Of a stretch of 52,147 nucleotides of DNA, positions 1,282-37,309 are shown one piece after another; positions within the stretch are counted from its first letter, which is position 1, and the number at the start of each line of letters is the position of its first letter. This DNA comes from Alphaproteobacteria bacterium (lineage in GTDB: Bacteria > Pseudomonadota > Alphaproteobacteria > UBA8366 > GCA-2717185). Position numbers and translations under genes: made by a program. The notes beneath the pieces are model-generated. The model did not search any database and had not been told where the DNA came from. It saw only the letters and a list, made by a program, of their open reading frames with translations. Where the stretch lies: contig JAJFJC010000002.1 of the NCBI GenBank assembly GCA_021774385.1, forward strand, positions 1-52,147. Direction: 5' to 3'.

Positions 1282-3486
1282 ATGCCTAATTCTTCCGGAC
1301 TTGCCGAGGCGTCACCCGCCTTTATCGCCGAATTGGAATCGCAGCCGGCGTTCGAGCGCCCGCTCACGGAGGGTGGGATTCGCTTTGAGCTGCACTCCGA
1401 TTATCAGCCGGCAGGCGATCAACCGCAGGCAATCGATGGGCTTTCCGAGGGCCTTGTCAACGGAGAGCGCGATCAGGTTCTGCTTGGCGTGACCGGATCC
1501 GGAAAAACCTTCACGGTCGCCAAGGTCATCGAGAACCTGCAGCGGCCAACCCTGGTGCTGGCGCCAAACAAGACGCTCGCCGCGCAGCTCTATGGCGAGA
1601 TGAAAGGGTTCTTCCCGGACAACGCGGTCGAATATTTCGTTTCCTATTACGACTATTATCAGCCCGAAGCCTACGTCCCGCGCACTGACACCTATGTCGA
1701 GAAGGAATCCTCGGTCAACGAACAGATCGACCGGATGCGGCATTCGGCGACGCGGGCGCTACTCGAACGGGACGACGTCGTCATCGTGGCGTCGGTGTCT
1801 TGCATCTATGGTATCGGCGCGGTGGAGACCTATTCGCGCATGACCGCCACGGTGAAGGCGGGCACCCAAATCGATACGCGCAAGCTGATGCAGCAACTGG
1901 TGGAATTGCAATACCGTCGCAACGACACCAGTTTTCAGCGCGGCGCCTTCCGGGTCCGGGGCGATACGATCGAAATTTTCCCCGCCCACTACGAAGACCG
2001 CGCCTGGCGTATCTCCATGTTTGGCGACGAGGTCGAGGCGATCCACGAATTCGACCCGCTGACCGGCGAGAAGATGACCTCGCTCGAATCGGTCCGCGTT
2101 TACGCCAACAGTCACTATGTCACGCCGCGCCCGACGCTGATTCAGGCGATCTCGGGCATCAAAGCCGAGCTCAAATCACACCTGAAGATGCTCAACGAGC
2201 ACGGCAAGTTGCTCGAAGCACAGCGTCTGGAGCAGCGCACGGTCTTCGACTTGGAAATGATCGAAGCCGCCGGCTCCTGTGCGGGTATCGAAAACTATTC
2301 GCGGTATCTTTCGGGCCGCAATGCGGGCGAGCCGCCGCCGACGCTGTTCGAGTATTTGCCGGACAATGCATTACTCATCGTCGATGAAAGCCACGTCACC
2401 GTACCGCAGCTCGGCGGCATGTATAAGGGCGACTTCGCGCGCAAATCGACTCTGGCAGAACACGGCTTTCGCCTCCCTTCCTGCATGGATAACCGGCCCC
2501 TCAAATTCGAGGAATGGGAGGCGATGCGGCCGCAGACAATTTATGTCTCTGCGACGCCGAGTCCCTGGGAACTGGAGCGGACCGGTGGCGTCTTCGTGGA
2601 GCAGGTCGTGCGGCCGACCGGGCTGATCGATCCCGTTTGCATCATCCGGCCAACCGAACATCAAGTCGACGACCTACTGGCCGAGTGTAAAAATTGCGTC
2701 GAGTTGGACCAGCGAGTTCTGGTGACGACACTGACAAAGCGCATGGCCGAGGATTTGACCGACTACATGGTCGAGGCCGGGCTGAAGGTCCGCTACATTC
2801 ATTCGGATGTGGAAACATTGGAGCGGATCGAAATTATTCGCGACCTACGGCTCGGCGTCTTCGACATTCTGGTCGGCATCAACCTGCTCCGCGAAGGACT
2901 CGATATTCCTGAATGCGCGCTAGTGGCGATCCTCGACGCGGACAAGGAAGGTTATTTGCGGTCGCGTACCTCGCTGGTACAGACGATCGGCCGCGCGGCG
3001 CGAAATATCGACGGCCGGGTTCTACTCTATGCCGACAGGATGACCGACTCGCTCGAATACGCCATCGGTGAGACCAACCGCCGGCGCGAACGCCAGCAGG
3101 CCTACAACGCGGCCAATGGCATCACGCCCGAATCGATCCGCAAGCAGATTTCCGACATACTCGAATCGGTGTACGAACGCGACCATGTCACCGTCGATAC
3201 TGGCGACGCAAAGCTGAAACATCTCGTCGGCATGGATCTTAAAACCTATATCAGCGCGGTCGAAGTACGCATGCGGGCCGCGGCAGCGGATCTTGAATTC
3301 GAGGAAGCCGCCGCATTGCGCGACGAGATCAAACGTGTCGAGGCGCATGATCTCGACATGCCCGTCGACACCGCACCGATTAATCCGAAAATCGCGGCCA
3401 GTATCCAATCGGTACCGAGCGGCATCCTGCCGAAAGGGCGCGGCAAGGGAAAACGCAAGCGGCGCGGCGCGCGCCGCGGTATCTAA
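1282..3486 (+). CDS. uvrB: Excinuclease ABC subunit B
   Basis: GDQP, Walker [22 protein letters not shown] beta-hairpin, [14 protein letters not shown] and a C-terminal UVR domain (FEEAAALRD). Confidence 0.98.
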
Positions 3487-4700: not shown

Positions 4701-6620
4701 ATGGCGGAACGAGCACGAACCGGCGGCGAAGCCGTCCCAGGCAACCGTAATGCCCATCGCGGCCTGCAAACGGGTGCCGCCGTCATTCAATCCTATCTCA
4801 AGACCCTACCGATCGCCCCCGGCGTATACCGCATGCTCAATCAACGCGGTGATGTGCTTTACGTCGGGAAAGCACATCAGCTTCGCAAACGCGTCACGAC
4901 CTATGCCAGCCCGGCAAAACTGCCCATTCGCCTGCAACGCATGGTCGCCGAAACCCAATCGATGGAATTCGTAACAACCCATACCGAGGTCGAAGCCCTA
5001 CTTCTCGAATCGAATCTGATCAAAAAATTGCGGCCGCGGTACAACGTCCTGCTGCGCGATGACAAAACGTTCCCCCATATCCTAATTACCGGCGACGGTG
5101 AATTCGCCCAGCTGCTCAAACATCGAGGCGCCCAGAAACAGGATGGTCGTTATTTCGGCCCCTTCGCATCGGCGGGGGCGGTGAACCGCACGATCGCCGC
5201 GCTGCAGCGCGCCTTCTTACTTCGTAACTGTTCCGACAATATTTTCCGCAGCCGCACGCGGCCTTGCCTTCAATTTCACATCAAACGATGCAGCGCACCC
5301 TGTGTCGGCCGGATCAGCCAGGAAGATTACGCTGCCATGGTTGGCGAAGCGTACGAATTCCTAACCGGGCATAGCGGCAAGATCCAAGCACGACTGGCCC
5401 GGCGCATGGAAAAGGCCAGCAATGTGCTGGAGTTCGAGGTCGCGGCCCGCATACGTGACCGGATCCGCGCCCTAACCCAGGTGCAGGCCCATCAGGACAT
5501 CAATGTCGCGGGGCTGGACAACGCGGATATCATTGCTTTGTATCAGGAAGGCGGGCAATCCTGCGTTCAGGTATTTTTCTTCCGTGGCGGCCGCAATTAC
5601 GGCAATCGCGCCTATTTCCCAAGCCATGACCGTCACTTGGACGCCGAAAACATCCTGTCCGCCTTCGTGGGGCAGTTTTACGACAACAAACCGCCACCAC
5701 GTACGGTTTTGCTCAGCCATACCTTGCCCGAACGCGACCTCATTGCCGAAGCGCTGACCACCCGCGCCGGACACAAGGTCCAAGTGCTGAACCCGCAGCG
5801 CGGCGGTAAACGAAAACCGGTCGAGCATGCGATCACCAATGCGCGCGAAGCACTCGGGCGGCGGCTTGCGGAAAGCACGACACATCGGCGTGCGCTCGAC
5901 GCGCTTGGGTCCCGCTTGGAATTCGACGGGCCACCGAACCGAATTGAAGTTTATGACAACAGCCACATTCAAGGCACCAACGCCATCGGCGCCATGATCG
6001 TAAGCGGCCCGGAAGGGCTGATGAAAAATGCATACCGCAAGTTCAATATCAAAACCGTCGGCGGCGAGGGCGATGCGGAGGCTGGCGACGATTACGCCAT
6101 GATGCGCGAGGTTTTGACCCGGCGCTTTACCCGCGCGCTTAAGGAAGACCCCGACCGTTCGGAAGGTAACTGGCCCGATTTGGTGATCGTTGATGGCGGA
6201 CGCGGGCAACTTGGCATCGCCGAAGAAGTCTTTGCCGAACTTGGCATCGACGACGTCAACCTACTCGGCGTCGCCAAGGGGCCGGATCGCAATGCCGGGC
6301 GCGAACGGTTTTATCAACCTGGCGGCGTCGGATTTACGCTACCACCCCGCGACCCACTGCTCTATTTTATCCAGCGCCTGCGCGACGAAGCCCACCGCTT
6401 CGCCATTACGACGCACCGCGCCAAGCGGTCGCGGGAAATTTCCGCGTCACCGCTCGATGAAATCGAGGGTATTGGCGCGAAACGAAAAAAGGCGCTGCTG
6501 TTGCATTTCGGGTCCGCTCGAAACGTCGCCCGCGCCGGTCTTGCCGATTTGGAAGCCGTCAACGGCATTAGTAAGGCCGTGGCAGAGAAAATTTATGGTC
6601 ATTTCCACACCGATCAGTAG
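4701..6620 (+). CDS. uvrC: Excinuclease ABC subunit C
   Basis: GIY-YIG domain (PGVYRM..LYVGKA), Cys-rich region, RIEVYDNSH RNase H-like domain, DGGRGQ, RDEAHRFA and C-terminal HhH motifs. Confidence 0.98.
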   Translation: MAERARTGGEAVPGNRNAHRGLQTGAAVIQSYLKTLPIAPGVYRMLNQRGDVLYVGKAHQLRKRVTTYASPAKLPIRLQRMVAETQSMEFVTTHTEVEALLLESNLIKKLRPRYNVLLRDDKTFPHILITGDGEFAQLLKHRGAQKQDGRYFGPFASAGAVNRTIAALQRAFLLRNCSDNIFRSRTRPCLQFHIKRCSAPCVGRISQEDYAAMVGEAYEFLTGHSGKIQARLARRMEKASNVLEFEVAARIRDRIRALTQVQAHQDINVAGLDNADIIALYQEGGQSCVQVFFFRGGRNYGNRAYFPSHDRHLDAENILSAFVGQFYDNKPPPRTVLLSHTLPERDLIAEALTTRAGHKVQVLNPQRGGKRKPVEHAITNAREALGRRLAESTTHRRALDALGSRLEFDGPPNRIEVYDNSHIQGTNAIGAMIVSGPEGLMKNAYRKFNIKTVGGEGDAEAGDDYAMMREVLTRRFTRALKEDPDRSEGNWPDLVIVDGGRGQLGIAEEVFAELGIDDVNLLGVAKGPDRNAGRERFYQPGGVGFTLPPRDPLLYFIQRLRDEAHRFAITTHRAKRSREISASPLDEIEGIGAKRKKALLLHFGSARNVARAGLADLEAVNGISKAVAEKIYGHFHTDQ

Positions 6621-9360: not shown

Positions 9361-9840
9361 ATGGCGATTCGGGTACAGCGGGAAGATTTCGATGTTGGCA
9401 CTGAGATCGCCGCCCTGACGGACGAGAATCCCCGGATTGGTGGCGTGACAAGTTTTACGGGTTTGGTTCGCGACATGACCGAAGGGGCGCAAACCAGCGC
9501 AATGACGTTGGAACATTATCCTGGCATGACGGAAAAAATGCTGGCCGCAATTGACGCTGAAGCGCATGATCGCTGGCCGTTGGAGGCCAGCTTGATCATC
9601 CATCGCTATGGGCGGCTCGAAGCCGGAGATCGCATCGTCCTTGTCATCGCCGCCAGCCCACATCGGGACGACGCTTTTGAAGCTTGCCGGTTTTTGATCG
9701 ATTGGCTGAAAACAAGGGCGCCGTTTTGGAAGCTGGAGGAATCGCTTAATGGTTCCTCTCGCTGGGTTGAAGCAAAAGAAGCAGACGACGACGCGGCGGC
9801 GCGCTGGAACGCGAACGATGGGAATAAAAGAGCGGGTTAG
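9361..9840 (+). CDS. moaE: Molybdopterin synthase catalytic subunit
   Basis: F.GLVR, LEHYPGMT, HRYG.L and LKTRAPFWKLE motifs. Confidence 0.95.
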   Translation: MAIRVQREDFDVGTEIAALTDENPRIGGVTSFTGLVRDMTEGAQTSAMTLEHYPGMTEKMLAAIDAEAHDRWPLEASLIIHRYGRLEAGDRIVLVIAASPHRDDAFEACRFLIDWLKTRAPFWKLEESLNGSSRWVEAKEADDDAAARWNANDGNKRAG

Positions 9841-9842
9841 CC

Positions 9843-10055
9843 ATGGCGGAAATAATTAATCTGCGCGAATTTCGAAAACGCAAGGACCGCAAAACCAAAT
9901 CGACGAAAGCCGCAAGAAACCGGGCACTGTCAGGCCGCAGTAAAACCGAAAAGACCCGTGATGAAGATAACGCGGAACACGCGAAATCCAATTTGGATGG
10001 CAAGAAAATCGGCCCCCCTTCAACAGAATCCGAGCCAAACGGCGAGACGGAATAA
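9843..10055 (+). CDS. DUF4169-like small basic protein
   Basis: MAEIINLREFRKRK...A..NR...GR.K.EK pattern typical of this alphaproteobacterial family. Confidence 0.7.
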   Translation: MAEIINLREFRKRKDRKTKSTKAARNRALSGRSKTEKTRDEDNAEHAKSNLDGKKIGPPSTESEPNGETE

Positions 10056-10058
10056 TCA

Positions 10059-11231
10059 ATGGCACGACAGGGTGTCTTTCAGTACGCGGCGATCGACCGG
10101 GTCCGTTACGGTTCGCCGTTCCAGGAAGCCATAGCAGCGGAGTCCGCGAAAATCGGCGCGGAACGAATTTTTCTACTCGCAAGCCGAACATTGCTCCGTG
10201 AGTCAGACTGTCTCGACCGGCTAACAGACACTCTGGGAGATAGACTTGTCGGGTCCTACGACCAAATTGGCGCGCATACACCGCGTATAGCGGTCGTCGA
10301 AGCCGCGAACCTCGCCCGGGAAGCGGACGCCGACTTGATCGTCACATTGGGTGGCGGATCGGTCACCGATGGCGGGAAAATGGTTGTCTTATGTCTTGCA
10401 AACGGCGTCAGCGACGCCGCCGATCTTGACCGCTATTTCACGCAGATCTCCGATGACGGCACGGCCGAACAACCCGACTTGGCAACACCTCGCATTCGTA
10501 TGGTCACCGTGCCGACGACGCTCTCGGCCGGCGAGTTCAACCACACCGCCGGCTGTACCGATACCAAGCGGCGTTTGAAGCAATCATACCGGCACAGGCT
10601 TCTCGCTCCGCTAACCATCATACTTGATCCAGCACTTACAGTTCACACGCCGGAGTGGCTATGGCTGTCGACGGGTATCCGCGCCGTGGATCATGCGGTG
10701 GAAGACCTGTGTTCCCGCAATCCCTTGAGCTATGTCGACGGTGCCGCCATACATGCGTTGAAGTTGCTCAGCGGTGGATTGCGGCGCGTGAAAGCCGACC
10801 CAAGCGATCTTGACGCCCGGCTCGACTGTCAGACCGGGGCGTGGCTGTCGATGACCGGTGCAATGGCGGGCGTGACCAAAGGGGCGAGCCATGGCATTGG
10901 CCATGTCCTGGGTGGCACCGCGAACGTACCGCATGGATACACCTCCTGCGTAATGCTTCCAAACGTCTTGCGTTACAACGAACCTGACAACGCGGCGCGG
11001 CAAAAGATGGTGAGCGACGCCTTGGAACGACCGGAGGAGGCCGCGGCCGATATCATACGCGCACTCGTTACGACCCTCGATCTACCGACCACTTTACGAG
11101 ACGTTGGCGTATCACCGGATCAACTCGACGATATTGCCCATAACGCGATGGGTGACCGATGGATACACACCAACCCACGCAAGATTACATCCCCGGATCA
11201 GGTTCGCGAAATTCTCGACTTGGCCTGGTAG
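10059..11231 (+). CDS. Iron-containing alcohol dehydrogenase (maleylacetate reductase-like subgroup)
   Basis: GGGSVTD, VPTTLSAGE and metal-ligand motifs DHAVE, HGIGH and PHG. Confidence 0.88.
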   Translation: MARQGVFQYAAIDRVRYGSPFQEAIAAESAKIGAERIFLLASRTLLRESDCLDRLTDTLGDRLVGSYDQIGAHTPRIAVVEAANLAREADADLIVTLGGGSVTDGGKMVVLCLANGVSDAADLDRYFTQISDDGTAEQPDLATPRIRMVTVPTTLSAGEFNHTAGCTDTKRRLKQSYRHRLLAPLTIILDPALTVHTPEWLWLSTGIRAVDHAVEDLCSRNPLSYVDGAAIHALKLLSGGLRRVKADPSDLDARLDCQTGAWLSMTGAMAGVTKGASHGIGHVLGGTANVPHGYTSCVMLPNVLRYNEPDNAARQKMVSDALERPEEAAADIIRALVTTLDLPTTLRDVGVSPDQLDDIAHNAMGDRWIHTNPRKITSPDQVREILDLAW

Positions 11232-11240
11232 TCGTTAAGC

Positions 11241-12872
11241 ATGGAGATCGTAAACGGACTTCGTTTTGATAACATTCGCGGTGATATTTTCGGCGGATTG
11301 ACCGCGGCCGTCGTCGCGCTACCGCTAGCACTTGCCTTCGGCGTCGCATCCGGCGCCGGGCCGATCGCGGGAATATATGGCGCTATCGCGGTTGGGTTTT
11401 TCGCCGCGCTGTTCGGCGGCACGCCATCGCAGGTATCCGGACCAACGGGCCCCATGACGGTCGTCATGGCAGCTATCGTCATGCAGTATCAGCACGATCC
11501 CGCCATGGCCTTTACCGTGGTCGTTCTCGGCGGGTTCCTGCAAATTCTATTCGGCCTCTTTCGGATCGGTCACTTCATCGACCTGATGCCGTTTCCCGTT
11601 ATTTCCGGCTTCATGAGCGGTATCGGCTGCATCATCATTATTTTGCAAATTGCGCCGCTATTCGGTCAGGACATTCCACCGGGCGGCACGTTGAGTGCGC
11701 TTTCCGCATTGCCCGATACCATATTCAATCCGAACTGGGATGCCCTTATGGTCGGCATCCTATGTTTTGCGATAGGCATGTTCACGCCGGCACGCCTTGG
11801 CCGGCTCATGCCGGCACCGCTTATCGCATTATTCGTTGGAACCTTGGTGGTTGTTTTCGCCTTGCCGGCGGCCCCCGTCCTCGGTGAAGTTCCCACCGGA
11901 CTGCCGGCGTTTAGACTACCAACCTTCACGATCGAGGCACTCCCGCATATGGTTGGGTCGGCGTTCGTCCTCGCTACGCTTGGGTCACTGGATAGTTTGC
12001 TAGCATCGCTTATTGCCGACAACGTGACCCGTACCCACCACAAATCAGACCGAGAACTGATTGGCCAAGGAATCGGCAACATGGTCTCGGGCCTGATAGG
12101 CGGCTTACCGGGCGCGGGAGCAACAATGCGGACCGTCATCAACGTTCGCGCCGGCGGACAAACCCCCATTTCCGGCGCGCTGCACGCCCTGGTCCTGCTC
12201 GCGATCGTCCTTGGCCTGGCACCGCTCGCCGCGCATATTCCGAATGCCGTCCTTGCTGGAATTTTGATCAAGGTCGGAATCGACATTATCGACTGGAATT
12301 ATCTAAGACGAATTCGCCGCGCGCCCAAACAAGGCGTCTTTTTCATGATTGTCGTTCTCGGGTTGACCGTTTTCGTCGACTTGATCATCGCCGTTGCCGT
12401 TGGTGTGGTCATGGCGAGTCTGCTCTTCGTTAAGCGGATGGCCGATTTACAACAAGCGGACATCAGAAGCGCAACGGCACCGAACCCCGAATTCACGCTG
12501 ACGGCCGAAGAAACAGCGATCCTCGACGAGGCCGGCGGACGTTTGCTCCTGTTCAGCTTCGAAGGCCCTGTCAGCTTTGGTGTTGCCAAACGGCTGTCAC
12601 GCCGGCTTGGCATGGCGGACGATTATGCCGTGCTGATTTTGGACCTGTCGGCCGTGCCGTTGATCGATTCGAGCGCGTCTCTTGCACTGGAAGACGCCAT
12701 CTTGGATGCGATCCGACGGGATAGAGCCGTTTTCGTCGCGGGACTTTCACCGCGCGTGCGCGACACCCTGGATCGTATCGGTACCTTGGCGAAACTGCCG
12801 CGAGACTGTTGCCACGAAAACCGGCTGTCGGCCTTTCGCGCCGCGTCAACGGCAGCGAAGACCGGCCCGTAA
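11241..12872 (+). CDS. SulP family anion transporter with STAS domain (BicA-like)
   Basis: RGDIFGGLTAAVVALPLALAFG, SGPTG, ELIGQGIGN, GATMRT and STAS motif LDLSAVPLIDSS. Confidence 0.9.
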   Translation: MEIVNGLRFDNIRGDIFGGLTAAVVALPLALAFGVASGAGPIAGIYGAIAVGFFAALFGGTPSQVSGPTGPMTVVMAAIVMQYQHDPAMAFTVVVLGGFLQILFGLFRIGHFIDLMPFPVISGFMSGIGCIIIILQIAPLFGQDIPPGGTLSALSALPDTIFNPNWDALMVGILCFAIGMFTPARLGRLMPAPLIALFVGTLVVVFALPAAPVLGEVPTGLPAFRLPTFTIEALPHMVGSAFVLATLGSLDSLLASLIADNVTRTHHKSDRELIGQGIGNMVSGLIGGLPGAGATMRTVINVRAGGQTPISGALHALVLLAIVLGLAPLAAHIPNAVLAGILIKVGIDIIDWNYLRRIRRAPKQGVFFMIVVLGLTVFVDLIIAVAVGVVMASLLFVKRMADLQQADIRSATAPNPEFTLTAEETAILDEAGGRLLLFSFEGPVSFGVAKRLSRRLGMADDYAVLILDLSAVPLIDSSASLALEDAILDAIRRDRAVFVAGLSPRVRDTLDRIGTLAKLPRDCCHENRLSAFRAASTAAKTGP

Positions 12873-20325: not shown

Positions 20326-21936
20326 ATGTCCGATACCGACCATCCCACGATATTTCCACTGGGCGCTGATGAAACGCCCTACCGGAAACTTACATCCGAC
20401 CATGTCGCCACGGTCTCGTTCGAAGGCAGCACGGTGCTCAAGGTTGCGCCGGAAGCCCTTTCACTTTTGGCCGCCGAAGCGTTTCACGATATCAATCATT
20501 TTTTGAGACCCGGGCATCTCGCCCAACTGCGCAAGATTCTCGACGATCCCGAAGCATCCAACAACGACAAATTTGTTGCCCTCGACTTGCTAAAAAACGC
20601 CAATATCGCCGCCGGCGGCATCCTGCCGATGTGTCAGGATACCGGAACGGCAATTGTCATGGGCAAGAAAGGAGAGCGCGTCTGGACCGGAGGAAACGAC
20701 GAATCAGCCTTGGCGGAAGGTGTCATGCGCACCTATACCGGCACAAATTTGCGCTACAGCCAGGTTTCGCCACTATCGATGTACGAAGAAGCCAACACGA
20801 AAACCAACCTACCCGGACAAATCGAGATCTATGCCGAGCCCGGCGACGCTTATAAGTTTTTGTTTGTCGCGAAAGGCGGCGGTTCGGCGAACAAAACCTA
20901 TCTGTTCCAGGAAACCCCGGCGATGCTGAACCCGGAAAAATTACTGCCCTTCCTGGACGAAAAAATTAGAACACTGGGCACCGCCGCATGCCCGCCCTAT
21001 CATTTATCCGTGGTGATCGGCGGCACCTCGGCCGAATTCAATCTGAAGACCGTGAAACTGGCAAGTTGCCGGTACCTGGACGCGCTGCCAACCGAAGGGG
21101 GCGATAAGGGACAGGCGTTTCGGGATCTCGAAATGGAAGAAGCGGTGTTCAAAATGTCCCAGGCCATGGGAATTGGCGCTCAATTCGGCGGCAAATATTT
21201 TTGTCACGACGTTCGGGTTGTCCGCCTGCCGCGACATGGCGCGAGTTTGCCGATCGGCATTGGCGTCTCATGTTCCGCCGACCGTCAGGCACTCGGAAAA
21301 ATCACCGCCGACGGTATCTACCTAGAACAGCTCGAAACCAATCCCGCTCAATTCCTTCCGGAAACCGTCTCCGAAGACCTGGGTGGCGAAGTGGTGAATA
21401 TCGATCTCAATCAACCGATGTCGGACATACTCGGTACGCTGACGCGGTATCCGGTCAAGACGCGCCTGTCATTGAATGGTTCGATTATAGTCGCCCGAGA
21501 TTTGGCGCATGCGCGACTCAAGGCATTGTTGGATGCCGGCAAGGAGCTGCCACAATATATGAAGGACCATCCCGTATATTATGCCGGCCCTGCGAAAACT
21601 CCAGATGGATTCGCTTCCGGATCGTTTGGCCCAACGACGGCGGGCAGGATGGACTCCTATGTCGACCAGTTCCAAGCCGCGGCCGGTAGTATGATCATGC
21701 TGGCCAAGGGGAACCGATCCGACATGGTTCGCCAGGCCTGCCAAAAACATGGCGGGTTCTATCTCGGATCTATTGGTGGCCCGGCGGCCCGGCTAGCGCT
21801 CGATTGCATAAAGAAGGTCGAGGTTGTCGAGTACGAGGATCTCGGCATGGAAGCGATCTGGCGTATCGAAGTCGAAAACTTTCCCGCCTTCATCGTCATG
21901 GATGACAAGGGGAATGATTTTTTCAAGGACCTCTAG
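20326..21936 (+). CDS. Class I (Fe-S) fumarate hydratase
   Basis: [28 protein letters not shown] and GPTTAGRM motifs. Confidence 0.95.
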
Positions 21937-21994
21937 TGTCCGAATTCACGTCATTAGTGGGCTGCGAAAATCGCACCCCGCTAATGGTGGGCAA

Positions 21995-23146
21995 TTATAG
22001 GTTCAACACATCGTCGTGCGTGCTGGCGGCGATAGCCATAACCTCATCGATTAAGTCTGGCGAAATGGCAAGTTCCTCGAGAGTTGCCTTCAGATGTCCA
22101 GCGACAGCGGCAAAGTGCGCCTCGCCCAGACCCTTTTCCTCGACAAGCGACTTGTGGGATTCGCGCAAGGAACGACCGGTATAGGCTTGGGGACCGCCAA
22201 AGGCGCCGGTCAGGAATATTCGTTGCATGAAGGCTTGGCGATCCATGTCGATGCCTTCGAAAAACGGTTTTAGCGTCGCGTCTCCCATGACCTTCGAATA
22301 GAAAGTATCGACGGTCGCTTCCACGGCATCGTCACCGCCAATCCGCTCGAAAAGCGTACCACCGGAAGACGGCGGCGCGCTGGGAATCGCTTCTGGCTGT
22401 ATTCTTTCCGTCTTTTCTGGCGGCGACGTTTCTGTCTTTGTTTCGGGAAATTTGACCACATTCTTGGTCGCTGGTGTCGTCGACGCCGGCGTAGGTTTCA
22501 CGATGCTTCGCTCGGCGACCGCTGCCCCTTCTGCCTGGTCATCGGCAGTTTCGGCATCCGCGGTTGGTTCAGGCGTAATCAATTTGGCCTTTTTCTTGTC
22601 CGTATCGGTCGCCGCGGGAACGCGCCGTTTCAGAACAACCGGCGGCGTTTTCATCAGAATCTCGGTGTCGAGCACACGTTCTATATCCAGCACGACCAAA
22701 AGATCGTCCGGCAAACGGAACACGCCCGTACTCAAGTGCCGTAACCTCTCGTCAAGTGTCGCCGGTGGTTTTTCAAAATCACGGCGCGGCAAATCCCGGA
22801 CATCGCCGATGGAATCGACCAGCAAGGTATAAAGGTCGCCGTGATACTCCACGGTAATCCCCATGCACCGCTCGTTTTCCCGTGCTTTGTCGATTCCAAG
22901 ACAGCGCCGCAAATTGATTACCGTAACGATCCGGCCTCTTAAATTCATCACACCGGCGATCGCGGAGGGAGCCAGCGGAACTGGTGTAATCAAGCGCGAT
23001 TCGACTATATCCTGTACCTGAAGAATTGGCACACCGAACATTTGGTTCTCGACCACCATCGTAACAAGTTGTTCCTTGTCGATGGCAATCTGGTCGAAAT
23101 CAACTGCGGCTTGATCCGTACTATCGACGATAGCAAGTTCACTCAT
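21995..23146 (-). CDS. CheW domain fused to a group I truncated haemoglobin
   Basis: N-terminal CheW (TPVP.AP..IAGVMNLRGRIVTVI, LLVDSI.DV), a ~100-aa P/T/A/E/K linker, and C-terminal trHb (LFERIGG, FY, FF, GGP..Y.GR.L..H). The ATG at 23146 has a GAGGAG RBS. Confidence 0.88.
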   Translation of the reverse strand: MSELAIVDSTDQAAVDFDQIAIDKEQLVTMVVENQMFGVPILQVQDIVESRLITPVPLAPSAIAGVMNLRGRIVTVINLRRCLGIDKARENERCMGITVEYHGDLYTLLVDSIGDVRDLPRRDFEKPPATLDERLRHLSTGVFRLPDDLLVVLDIERVLDTEILMKTPPVVLKRRVPAATDTDKKKAKLITPEPTADAETADDQAEGAAVAERSIVKPTPASTTPATKNVVKFPETKTETSPPEKTERIQPEAIPSAPPSSGGTLFERIGGDDAVEATVDTFYSKVMGDATLKPFFEGIDMDRQAFMQRIFLTGAFGGPQAYTGRSLRESHKSLVEEKGLGEAHFAAVAGHLKATLEELAISPDLIDEVMAIAASTHDDVLNL

Positions 23147-23235
23147 AAGGCACTCCTCGCATTTCCGATTGCTTCGCCTCGCCGAAATGGACGGAGGATC
23201 AGCAGTTATCGAGGAGGAACGATAATGATATTCCG

Positions 23236-23251
23236 TTAACGGAGCCTTTAC
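23236..23251. promoter_or_regulatory. Putative CtrA box upstream of cheW-globin
   Basis: TTAA-CGGAGCC-TTTAC, one mismatch to TTAA-N7-TTAAC, about 90 bp upstream of the start. Confidence 0.5.
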
Positions 23252-23273
23252 GGCCGTGAAATTCTGTTGTGGA

Positions 23274-24113
23274 TTAACCTTTGGGAACCTCGATCGGCAT
23301 CTCGTCCCGATTTCCCCATTCGTTCCATGAACCAAGATAGTTTCGGACGCGCGGGTAATCGAGCAGGCGCATAGCCAAGTAGGCATGGGCGGATCGATAC
23401 CCTGTTTGACAAAGCGCGATGATTTCCTTGTCGGCGGAAATACCGTTTTCCGCGAATAACGTGCGCAATTCATTTCCCGGTTTCATCGTGCCATCGGGCC
23501 GCAAATGGTTCACCCATTCTAAATGTACGGAACCGGGAACAGTGCCACCCTTGGCCGCGCGGCGATCCTCGCCGGTCCATTCTAACTTTCCACGGGTATC
23601 CAGAATAACGCAGTCCAGCGCGTTGATTCCCGCGCGTACATCATGGTGCGTGGCGAGACGGCCGCGATCCATTTGATATTTAAATACCGATGCTGTCGGC
23701 ACGGTCGCCTCACGCGTAACAGATAACCCGGCGGCTTCCCAGCCCGAATACCCGCCATCGAGAACATGAACATCCTTATGCCCCAGATACTCCAAAAACC
23801 ACAAACCGCGCGCGGCGGTCATTCCGGTGATTTCACCGCAAAAAACAATCGTGTCATCGAATGCGACTCCGCGACGGGCCAACAGGAATGCCCACATCCG
23901 GGTGAAGGAAAGGAGCGGCGCGTCATCGGTATCGTCGCAGTTCAGGGCATAAATATCGAAATGCCGTGCACCGGGTATATGACCCATAGCAAATCGTTCA
24001 CCGGGGCGCACATCGATGATGCGCAATGACGGGTCGTTCAGCCGCGCTTGCAAATCTTCCCGTGTCCAGAGCAAATCTGGATTTTCGTACCCTGCGGTTT
24101 CCTTTGTCGACAT
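23274..24113 (-). CDS. Tandem-domain rhodanese/sulfurtransferase (SseA-like)
   Basis: GHIPGA, VLDGG, active loop CQTGYR and YLGSWNEW. The ATG at 24113 has an AAGGA RBS. Confidence 0.9.
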   Translation of the reverse strand: MSTKETAGYENPDLLWTREDLQARLNDPSLRIIDVRPGERFAMGHIPGARHFDIYALNCDDTDDAPLLSFTRMWAFLLARRGVAFDDTIVFCGEITGMTAARGLWFLEYLGHKDVHVLDGGYSGWEAAGLSVTREATVPTASVFKYQMDRGRLATHHDVRAGINALDCVILDTRGKLEWTGEDRRAAKGGTVPGSVHLEWVNHLRPDGTMKPGNELRTLFAENGISADKEIIALCQTGYRSAHAYLAMRLLDYPRVRNYLGSWNEWGNRDEMPIEVPKG

Positions 24114-24311
24114 CGGTCGCTTTCCTTTCGGATGGATTGATTTCTCGTTAGCCACGGCTCATGGGAACAGCGGCTACGCGCAAACCCGATTGAATGTTTA
24201 GCCGGTGTCGGCCCAGCGTCATTTCCCAGTAGATCAAGGACCGGGCACGCGAAAGTGATTTCTTATGCGGCGGCTCTCCTTGCATTTGGTAGGCAATAGA
24301 CGCATTTTTCC

Positions 24312-24818
24312 ATGGTCGCCATGATAAATTTTCTAAAAACCCTGATTCGTCCCGACCGCGAGGAAAGCGATCCCGAATGTGATGAAATCGCGCGGGCGGC
24401 AAATCTTCTCCAAATCGGTGAGTTTCAACTTCTCCAGCTTGCCTATGCCGAATGGTATGGTGAGGAGTTGCCTGAATCGTCGACCGATCACTTGTTTGCA
24501 GACTATATGCTCCGCAAGCAGGTACCGCATTGGGCACGACACTATGCGCGCCGGATCAATGATTGGGAAAAACGAGAACTTCTTGATCATAGCGATGCCG
24601 CGTACCATCGCTATGACCGCGGCTATAGTATGAAGGCACCCGGCGGTATTCGCCGTTTTTGTATTGCGACCGCCGTATTGGTTGTGTTTGTTGGAGGGAG
24701 CCTTTGGGTCAGCCATTTGGCCGTGGGCGGACGTTCGGCTTCGTTTCTGCCACCGTATTTTGACACCGATGAGTTAAAGCAAACCCGAAGACATGGGGAA
24801 GTCGGTCCAGGGTCGTAA
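24312..24818 (+). CDS. Hypothetical protein with one C-terminal TM helix
   Basis: Protein-like composition (GEFQLLQLAY..WYG, VPHWARHYAR) and one hydrophobic helix; fills the gap between real genes. Confidence 0.7.
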   Translation: MVAMINFLKTLIRPDREESDPECDEIARAANLLQIGEFQLLQLAYAEWYGEELPESSTDHLFADYMLRKQVPHWARHYARRINDWEKRELLDHSDAAYHRYDRGYSMKAPGGIRRFCIATAVLVVFVGGSLWVSHLAVGGRSASFLPPYFDTDELKQTRRHGEVGPGS

Positions 24819-36316: not shown

Positions 36317-37309
36317 TTGTTCGTTGATGAGAAAGCGTTAATTTTGAATAAACTTTTGCAGGGATTGCGAGCGGTGGCGGAACCGACACGGTTGCGGTTA
36401 CTCGCGTTATGCGCGCATGCGGAGCTAACCGTTAGCGAGCTTACGCAGATTCTCGGCCAGAGCCAACCGCGCGTATCGCGCCACTTGAAGCTTCTCGTGG
36501 AAGCTGGACTGCTTGATCGTTTTCGTGAGGGCACATGGGCATTTTATAGAATGTCCGAACAACAGGCCTGCGCAACACTCGGTCGCACGGTTGTCGATCT
36601 AATTCCGGACGACGACCCGACACTCACGCTCGATCTCGAGCGCCTCGAAACAGTGAAACAGGCAAGAGCGCGGCAAGCGGGAAACTATTTCCGAACAAAC
36701 GCGGCGCATTGGGATCAGATTCGCTCGCTCCATGTCGATGAAGCGGAAATCGAACGAAGGATGCTCGGATTACTCGGTCCGGATACGGTCGGCGACCTGC
36801 TCGATATCGGCACTGGGACGGGCCGCATGCTTGTGGTCTACGGCGCGACGGCGTCGCGTGCCGTTGGGATCGATCTGTCGCACGAAATGCTCTCTGTCGC
36901 GCGCGTAAATCTGGAAAAAGCGGGTTTGCGCAATTGCCAGGTTCGACTTGGCGATATGTATCAGCTTCCAGTGCCCAGCGAATCCTTCGACTCGATTACA
37001 ATTCACCAAGTCCTGCATTACGCCGATTCGCCGGCGGACGTTATCGCCGAAGCAGCGCGCGCGTTACGTCCAGGAGGTCGACTGATCGTGGCGGATTTCA
37101 CGCCGCACCAAGAGGAAGCGTTGCGCGACGAGCACGCTCATCGCCGATTGGGTTTTTCCAACGAAGAACTTGCCGGCTGGCTGCGGCGCGCCAACCTTAT
37201 TCCCGGCGAGCCGGTATATCTGCATGGCGAACCACTGACCGTTGGCTTATGGCCTGCGCACCGGCCAGCAAATGATGAAGCAGCACTCGAACGGCGCGCA
37301 ACGGCTTAA
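36317..37309 (+). CDS. sahR: SahR: ArsR HTH + SAM-methyltransferase-fold regulator
   Basis: ArsR HTH (EPTRLRLL...SQPRVSRHLK) fused to a LDIGTGTG SAM-binding domain; heads metF-metH. The start may be the TTG at 36344. Confidence 0.85.
   Translation: MFVDEKALILNKLLQGLRAVAEPTRLRLLALCAHAELTVSELTQILGQSQPRVSRHLKLLVEAGLLDRFREGTWAFYRMSEQQACATLGRTVVDLIPDDDPTLTLDLERLETVKQARARQAGNYFRTNAAHWDQIRSLHVDEAEIERRMLGLLGPDTVGDLLDIGTGTGRMLVVYGATASRAVGIDLSHEMLSVARVNLEKAGLRNCQVRLGDMYQLPVPSESFDSITIHQVLHYADSPADVIAEAARALRPGGRLIVADFTPHQEEALRDEHAHRRLGFSNEELAGWLRRANLIPGEPVYLHGEPLTVGLWPAHRPANDEAALERRATA

Follow-up and report, generated by a model that had tools for sequence, protein, structure and literature searches.

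Can a chemotaxis array take in a gas or redox signal at its adaptor protein CheW? The question is raised by one gene in a 52,147-nucleotide stretch of alphaproteobacterial DNA (assembly GCA_021774385.1, contig JAJFJC010000002.1; hereafter the window), whose 383-residue product joins an N-terminal CheW domain to a C-terminal group I truncated haemoglobin. Receptors are regarded as the entry point of chemotaxis signals into arrays, and CheW is viewed as a passive coupling scaffold. We found that the CheW-globin fusion is real and conserved, and not an assembly error, and that it is the sole stand-alone CheW detected in its genome. Whether this CheW would deliver a haem-based module for O2, nitric oxide (NO) or redox state to the kinase layer, thereby biasing CheA output in trans, we regard as an evenly balanced proposition, for which the evidence on both sides is set out below.

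An earlier note on this DNA, made from the sequence alone, had read one intact open reading frame (ORF) containing a complete CheW and a complete globin domain. Pfam bore this out at the same positions, with CheW at residues 26-160 (E 3e-31) and Bac_globin at residues 264-380 (5.3e-17), each exceeding its cut-off by a wide margin; NCBIfam returned a CheW match only, at a sub-threshold score. The minus-strand frame is open throughout positions 21995-23473, and the start at the ATG at 23146 is supported by the same MSELAV/MTELAV N terminus in four relatives. That two separate genes had been joined by assembly or gene calling could be suspected from the metagenome-type nature of the contig and from the Logan contigs, which are short, merely 2-5x deep and in no case cover the whole ORF singly. 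Against such an artefact, to which we assign practically no probability, stand the single, uninterrupted frame and the Logan contigs from two runs spanning both the CheW-linker and the linker-globin boundary, the check across the linker that the earlier note had called for. The same architecture, likewise sought in other genomes, argues in the same direction: in a homologue search with 8000 scored candidates and 360 matches at E <= 0.001, both Pfam domains were present in 82 of the best 120 homologues listed, which stem from diverse sources, closed genomes among them. Where a name is given, the carriers are marine members of the Alphaproteobacteria, in the genera Pacificispira, Hwanghaeella, Marivibrio, Curvivirga and Aestuariispira. 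The sequencing runs were four DNA runs of one study, which may be the source samples of the window itself; no RNA sequencing run was listed in the run search for the fusion sequence.

Sequence and predicted fold mark the N-terminal domain as a canonical CheW. Its Pfam match scores 108.3 bits (cut-off 23.5) and covers profile positions 1-135 of 138, and the N-terminal half of the fusion matches solved CheW sequences at 1e-10 to 1e-14. AlphaFold2 models residues 21-170 with a predicted local distance difference test (pLDDT) of 82-94, and Foldseek places this half on 6s1k_C, 2qdl and 2ch4 with template modelling (TM) scores by target of 0.79-0.83, recovering the two-subdomain beta-barrel fold. 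In an alignment with 2ho9, Arg70 (22937-22939), Asp46, Ile41 and Val44 correspond to Arg62, Glu38, Ile33 and Val36 of E. coli CheW, residues which we take to be significant for receptor and kinase contact. The exchange of Glu38 for Asp46 is conservative, and among the 120 homologues Arg70 and Ile41 are each kept in 119, Asp46 in 118 and Val44 in 113.

The C-terminal domain is, by alignment and model alike, a group I truncated haemoglobin with all haem-pocket residues in place. Bac_globin matches nucleotides 22357-22007 at 62.6 bits (cut-off 21), the nearest solved globins are GlbN of Synechocystis and Synechococcus (2.6e-29) and THB1 of Chlamydomonas (3.2e-28), and all of the top 19 PDB sequences belong to group I. 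Superposition of this half on cyanomet THB1 (6cii) by Foldseek gave a TM of 0.88 and a root-mean-square deviation of 1.8 Å, as expected of a 2-on-2 helical sandwich. The haem-pocket residues named beforehand were all recovered in the alignments to GlbN and THB1, i.e., the Gly-Gly motifs (IGG 269-271, FGG 316-318), Phe282-Tyr283 at B9-B10, Phe296 at CD1, Gln304 at E7, Gln308 at E11 and His331 at F8. Position E10 is occupied by Met307, which aligns with Lys53 of THB1 and with His46 of GlbN, presumably a haem ligand of the latter. In a study on these globins (PMC7082302), LysE10 serves as the sixth ligand of the iron in THB1, THB2 and THB4, and the Synechocystis and Synechococcus globins are described as hexacoordinate, with tunnels that open only with ligand bound. 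Met is the commonest state at E10 in homologues with His at F8 (41 of 74). Furthermore, His377 aligns with His117 of GlbN, which the title of 2hz2 ties to covalent haem linkage; His occurs at this position in 18 homologues, 18 of 18 having Met at E10. We offer only as a hypothesis that the haem of the fusion globin would be His/Met-ligated and possibly covalently bound. Five more truncated-haemoglobin genes, all free-standing, are found in the same genome on contigs C48, C205, C58, C471 and C219 (loci L010, L012-L015), the one on C48 being 58% identical to the fused globin domain.

The description of the intervening linker as a Pro/Thr/Ala/Glu/Lys-rich segment of about 100 residues holds, 76% of residues 165-262 being P, T, A, E, K, S or D. 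AlphaFold2, run on a 43-row alignment, yielded two confident domains lacking a fixed mutual arrangement (predicted TM score, pTM, 0.44) and predicted residues 193-260 to be disordered (pLDDT <50). Across homologues, the linker measures 31-191 residues. Nonsynonymous divergence (dN) from two relatives, the only rate used as synonymous sites were saturated (dS >=1.3 or undefined), is 0.63-0.68 in the linker, 0.09-0.11 in the CheW domain and 0.11-0.13 in the globin; the globin value is close to that of CheW, so that the two domains experience comparable constraint in the family of the window. The earlier note had supposed that a tethered haem sensor could modulate CheA directly. Conformational transmission does not fit a disordered tether of this kind: direct allostery is unlikely according to the model, because the linker comprises ~70-100 disordered residues, and what is left of the proposal would need ligand-dependent binding in trans. 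A complex prediction with the CheW domain (18-172), the globin domain (258-383) and haem scored 0.00 against a mark of 0.32 and is uninformative on intramolecular docking.

The gene had also been called an orphan cheW in the earlier note. By position this is appropriate: Pfam identified housekeeping and transport genes only among 45 further ORFs of the window, confirming that no other che or mcp gene is present there, and whole-genome scans for CheW, MCPsignal and H-kinase_dim gave no further match on the contig of the fusion. In the sense of an accessory protein the term does not apply. The fusion is the sole stand-alone CheW in the genome (6.3 Mb, 558 contigs, 95% complete) and would therefore be the coupling protein of the array. 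Three CheW-domain matches were obtained in this genome, namely the fusion and two CheW-like domains of one CheA, together with one CheA dimerization domain, five methyl-accepting chemotaxis proteins (MCPs) and FliG. No other stand-alone CheW was found in 17 genomes of the same family, 13 of which carry the fusion, and MCPs and CheW-domain matches fall in the same 14 of these 17. In four of five closed single-contig relatives, the fusion ortholog and an F5-type CheA are the only CheW-domain proteins; the fifth has a second che cluster. The CheA in question, a protein of 931 aa on contig C411, is composed of Hpt, H-kinase_dim, HATPase_c, CheW, a weak second CheW-like domain and Response_reg (CheA.VI architecture). 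Its gene is followed on the 3' side by cheY and then by cheB, which is cut by the contig end, and the cluster contains no cheW gene. Wuichet and Zhulin, and Vass and colleagues, place CheA architectures with two CheW-like domains in F5 systems (bioRxiv 10.1101/2022.05.07.491037). We consider the C411 CheA of this F5-linked architecture the likely partner of the fusion.

Globins of the same type are also attached to other chemotaxis proteins. At locus L038, a plus-strand gene (9368-12541) encodes a CheA of 1057 aa in which Bac_globin (residues 212-325) separates Hpt from the dimerization domain, and this globin is 63% identical to that of the window. The operon, in other respects like the cluster around the C411 CheA, encodes a ChpT-like protein, the CheA, a plain CheW of 163 aa, CheY, CheB and CheR, and no CheW-globin was found in this genome. 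With the L038 globin region as query, 16 matches among long carriers (581-1850 aa) comprised nine CheA and seven MCP proteins; eight more CheA-globin proteins were found beside that of L038 (P0121-P0123, P0126, P0129-P0132, P0136). Pfam on ten long carriers showed four CheAs with the order Hpt-globin-dimerization and MCPs with an N-terminal globin followed by PAS or 4HB-HAMP. In P0121 (983 aa) the globin, at 478-593, lies between HATPase and CheW-like domains; Pfam detected no Hpt in this CheA, which may be N-terminally cut. Two globin stretches were seen in P0121 and P0123, i.e., in two of the five CheA-globin proteins scanned with Pfam. Mid-length carriers (210-671 aa) were mainly CheW fusions (31 of 39), with five proteins combining the globin with ODP/metallo-beta-lactamase and three of other architectures. 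In a rapidly built tree (80 globin domains, 122 columns), the globin of the window falls in a clade of 16 CheW-borne globins (support 99), which groups with five CheA-borne and two MCP-borne globins and no free globin, at weak support (SH-aLRT 83). We prefer a sensory role over a purely enzymatic one because the same globin type is inserted in CheA and placed N-terminally on MCPs.

Some further observations concern these carriers and their surroundings. A gene for a ChpT-like histidine phosphotransferase lies directly upstream of the F5-type cheA both in the genome of the window and at L038 (L038:8628-9275). Beside the cheA of the window's genome, ChpT-like and REC-Hpt genes are found at L096:4104-4760 (minus strand) and 4943-5998 (plus strand), the REC-Hpt gene being divergent and located beyond the ChpT-like one. 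ODP is an oxygen- and iron-sensing chemotaxis partner protein; the joining of this globin type to the ODP/metallo-beta-lactamase pair (PF19583 + PF00753) in P0139-P0142 and P0144 (384-422 aa) would be a further gas-sensing combination. The genome with the CheA-globin additionally contains a 337-aa frame (G096:C12:5522-5959), whose C-terminal globin is 43% identical to that of the window and in which a CheW match is absent.

Taken as a working model, the CheW domain of the fusion would build the baseplate of the cell's single array, made up of five MCPs and one F5-linked CheA (Hpt-dimerization-HATPase-CheW-CheW-REC), because by elimination and co-occurrence it would be the only CheW in the cell. 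The tether would hang the haem domain under the baseplate, in the zone of the mobile CheA P1 domain and of CheY. The haem state, meaning binding of O2, NO or CO, or Fe(II)/Fe(III), would remodel the surface of the globin, in the way that displacement of a ligand acts in its hexacoordinate relatives, and Met307 at E10 may be an endogenous sixth ligand needing displacement. Binding or release of a part of the kinase core by the globin in trans would then bias the output of CheA. In other bacteria, the same globin type would reach the same zone via its insertion between CheA P1 and P3. More tentative, and in its entirety somewhat doubtful, is the wider proposal that this group I globin clade may be a portable gas or redox input module, usable at receptor, adaptor or kinase, with the haem state on the only CheW controlling CheA in trans as a receptor-independent input and a His/Met-ligated (E10 Met), possibly covalent haem acting as the switch.

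A number of observations weigh against this model. The disordered tether excludes a simple allosteric coupling (pLDDT <50, pTM 0.44). CheW-borne globins do not form one clade, at least three changes being forced, and the deep branches of the tree are unresolved. Two PAS-type MCPs in the genome of the window could already serve energy taxis or aerotaxis. Of the 91 genomes of the order, 72 match the fusion protein at <=1e-8 and 56 the CheA at <=1e-30. The co-occurrence of the CheW ortholog with an orthologous CheA (~930 aa) speaks for the model but is weak evidence, as any chemotaxis gene would track CheA and related genomes are not independent: across 91 genomes of the order, both were detected in 47, the CheW ortholog without a detected CheA in 15, CheA only in four and neither in 25, and among the 24 genomes with <=20 contigs the respective numbers were 21, zero, zero and three. 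Within the family, no CheA was found in eight of the 13 fusion-bearing genomes (G040, G041, G042, G045, G047, G048, G050 and G052), which are fragmented (60-910 contigs) and 62-95% complete. In favour of the model, the fusion carries in-frame stops in G047, where just an MCP fragment is present.

Variation of the globin within the homologues weighs against the model as well. Position F8 across 117 aligned homologues is His in 74, Leu in 17, Tyr in 17 and another residue in nine, leaving 43 without the proximal His; Tyr B10 is also kept in 70 of the 74 with His F8, and the family of the window keeps every haem-pocket residue. An ortholog with the haem residues retained is also present in the closed genome G029 (L102). 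The three orthologs retrieved for family f5 of this order (L097:1497-3167, L098:1142-2995, L101:1051-2538) lack a globin and bear long tails at a total of 495-617 aa, and the CheW domain shows ~60% identity throughout. These tails are acidic and Pro-rich, with the common motifs RRP-x-x-ERWQE and WW-x-K/R-L/M-R and a Lys-rich end. What the orthologous CheW proteins conserve may simply be the presence of a C-terminal extension. As the proximal His is missing in 43 of 117 homologues and the family f5 orthologs are globin-less, haem is apparently not universally needed in the CheW-globin family, and the orthologs that lack haem or the whole globin speak for an extension whose function can in some cases do without haem. 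Both the F8 His and Tyr B10 are lost, with the globin-fold domain kept, in proteins of the Hwanghaeella type (P0060, P0065, P0069, P0077), and the domain is retained on the same CheW after the same two losses in the Curvivirga/Aestuariispira type (P0080, P0088, P0106); such domains, with Leu or Tyr at F8, are candidate haem-free pseudo-globins. As an observation on one of the PAS-type MCPs, its gene lies directly upstream of that for cytochrome oxidase subunit I (L005:430-1998 and 2496-3428), a pairing that suggests energy taxis or aerotaxis.

Other explanations have to be weighed on the same evidence. Tyr B10, Gln E7 and Gln E11 together make up a pocket of the kind usual for NO-dioxygenase or ligand-stabilizing function, and the closest solved relatives of the fusion globin are such globins. 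This function is also touched on in PMC7082302. The globin could be a tethered enzyme or buffer, such as an NO dioxygenase or an O2/NO scavenger, concentrated at the array with kinase output unchanged; a long disordered tether fits localization better than allostery, and the five free truncated haemoglobins indicate that globin chemistry is in general use in this organism. We consider this account unlikely. A reductase partner is neither fused nor adjacent, the 58% identical free paralogue on C48 is already available, the fusion has in-frame stops where chemotaxis decayed (G047), and the repeated attachment to MCP, CheW and CheA (16 of 16 long and 31 of 39 mid-length carriers) would go unexplained. 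The globin-less family f5 orthologs, with their common motifs and Lys-rich ends, suit a structural alternative, in which a long C-terminal tail, as the feature common to the order, would space, cross-link, localize or phase-organize arrays, the globin being a folded cap and its haem incidental. The variable linker length of 31-191 residues and the persistence of the domain after loss of His F8 in 43 of 117 aligned homologues are in line with it. In the family of the window, however, no haem-pocket residue is lost and the globin and CheW domains have equal dN, and on MCPs the same globin type occupies the N-terminal place usual for sensor domains, so that we rate this explanation as improbable, too.

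Very unlikely in our assessment is a function outside the CheA pathway, with the CheW-like domain being a general interaction module, e.g., for MCP-like proteins only, in a chemotaxis-independent job. The gene does lie among the housekeeping genes fumA, sspB, thyA and folA and not in a che operon, and the lack of a detected CheA in eight of 13 family carriers and in 15 genomes order-wide would be accounted for. However, the genomes without a detected CheA are fragmented metagenome bins of 62-96% completeness, and the gene never occurs without CheA in the 24 genomes with <=20 contigs. In addition, the equivalents of the receptor- and kinase-contact residues of E. coli CheW are near-invariant and all family carriers also have MCPs.

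Compared with known systems, the fusion resembles canonical CheW of E. coli and T. maritima in its whole-length domain match, its fold and its equivalents of Arg62, Glu38, Ile33 and Val36, and likewise is the only adaptor; it differs by ~220 extra C-terminal residues forming the tether and haem globin, and by being encoded off the che operon, by fumA-sspB-thyA. CheV (CheW-REC) and the rare fusions of CheW with CheC, CheR, CheX, CheZ, Hpt, REC or PAS listed by Vass, Bourret and Foster are likewise adaptors with a C-terminal regulatory or input domain, whereas here a haem globin is appended via a long, disordered linker. Pfam gave no Response_reg match in the fusion, which thus lacks the CheW-then-receiver order of CheV. 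In their preprint (bioRxiv 10.1101/2022.05.07.491035), these authors state that PAS on CheW "might provide input information". HemAT and other globin-coupled sensors also use a haem globin for chemotaxis, with O2 as the expected ligand. In HemAT, a 3-on-3 protoglobin-type globin is placed N-terminally on an MCP and signals via a continuous helical bundle (globin families as given in PMC7475203), whereas the fusion has a 2-on-2 group I globin C-terminally on an adaptor, and a rigid connection is absent. It is no HemAT-type globin-coupled sensor by domain content either, the globin being C-terminal and of the T family, and MCPsignal, GGDEF and kinase transmitter domains being absent by Pfam. To GlbN and THB1, the fusion globin shows 43-49% identity (Foldseek), and it shares Tyr B10, Gln E7, Gln E11 and His F8 with them; these proteins are free-standing and have His (GlbN) or Lys (THB1) at E10 in place of Met.

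Also comparable are Bac_globin-PAS-MCP receptors, in which a truncated haemoglobin is likewise borne by a chemotaxis protein, as in the seven MCPs found here; there the globin sits on the receptor, in the fusion on the adaptor and in nine further proteins inside CheA. One such receptor, Cc_4972 of Corallococcus, was predicted in silico (PMC6194562). Bacterial chimeric T globins are said to be T2 and T3, and T1 chimeras eukaryotic, in a review (PMC7475203), a summary outside of which the bacterial T1 chimera described here falls. In line with the earlier note, according to which no characterized precedent is known, the literature reached contains no CheW- or CheA-truncated haemoglobin fusion; subscription papers and supplements lay beyond this reach. 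The word globin has zero occurrences in the main text of both CheW-architecture preprints (bioRxiv 10.1101/2022.05.07.491035 and 10.1101/2022.05.07.491037), the supplements of which may list CheW-globin among the "rare" architectures, and neither "truncated" nor "trHb" occurs in a 2026 aerotaxis review. As far as searched, the CheW-globin architecture is visible in databases, yet undescribed in the literature.

The positions of the gene, its parts and its direct neighbours are compiled in the table. The adjacent tandem-rhodanese gene was considered as a conserved functional partner with sulfide in mind, and rejected: of 80 loci compared, it borders the fusion gene in L016 and L017 alone, the two closest relatives, so that this linkage is confined to the genus of the window. 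On the other side, a fumA-sspB-thyA-folA block accompanies the gene across the order and is complete downstream of the fusion gene in L016, L017, L018 and L021; L022 contains fumA, sspB and thyA before the locus end, and L028 fumA and sspB only. Distant CheW relatives (45-53% identity; Azospirillum, Thalassospira, Magnetospirillum and others) are mostly found beside response-regulator genes, as in che operons. A scan of positions 21800-24500 yielded two promoter-like and four terminator-like sites against shuffle means of 2.2 and 2.8, respectively, hence no excess. Further along the window, a plus-strand gene at 36317-37309 encodes an ArsR-type helix-turn-helix fused to an S-adenosylmethionine-dependent methyltransferase domain, with metF and metH following just downstream.

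Table. Positions in the window of the CheW-globin fusion gene, its parts and adjacent genes.
Feature	Position	Strand	Basis or remark
CheW-truncated haemoglobin fusion, coding sequence, 383 aa	21995..23146	-	stop codon 21995-21997
Shine-Dalgarno-like GAGGAG	23153..23158	-	6 nt 5' of the fusion ATG; read from the sequence
N-terminal 25 residues	23072..23146	-	MSELAV conserved; AlphaFold2 confidence low at residues 1-14
CheW domain, residues 26-160	22667..23071	-	Pfam PF01584, E 3e-31
Linker, residues 161-263	22358..22666	-	short conserved helix and basic stretch, then Pro/Thr/Ala/Glu/Lys-rich tether
Group I truncated haemoglobin domain, residues 264-383	21998..22357	-	Pfam, PDB alignments, Foldseek
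Tyr B10 codon	22298-22300	-	
Gln E7 codon	22235-22237	-	
Met E10 codon	22226-22228	-	
Gln E11 codon	22223-22225	-	
His F8 codon	22154-22156	-	
His377 codon	22016-22018	-	
Tandem-rhodanese sulfurtransferase-like gene	23274..24155	-	upstream neighbour, same strand, 127-nt gap; Pfam
Class I fumarate hydratase gene	20326..21936	+	convergent, downstream of the fusion; Pfam

For the biology of this group, the central point is that an entire alphaproteobacterial lineage has a single CheW and that this protein bears a haem domain. Even if the globin were merely a scavenger or a structural cap, this would still be a well-documented, widespread and uncharacterized architecture, and the family itself offers natural controls in the form of haem-competent, haem-ligand-less and globin-less orthologs of one CheW. 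A possible new haem ligation in a 2-on-2 globin, by His and Met at E10, adds to its interest. If the state of the globin changes kinase output, signals would enter the array at the level of the baseplate, and truncated haemoglobins, for the most part still of unsettled physiological role, would gain a defined signalling function.

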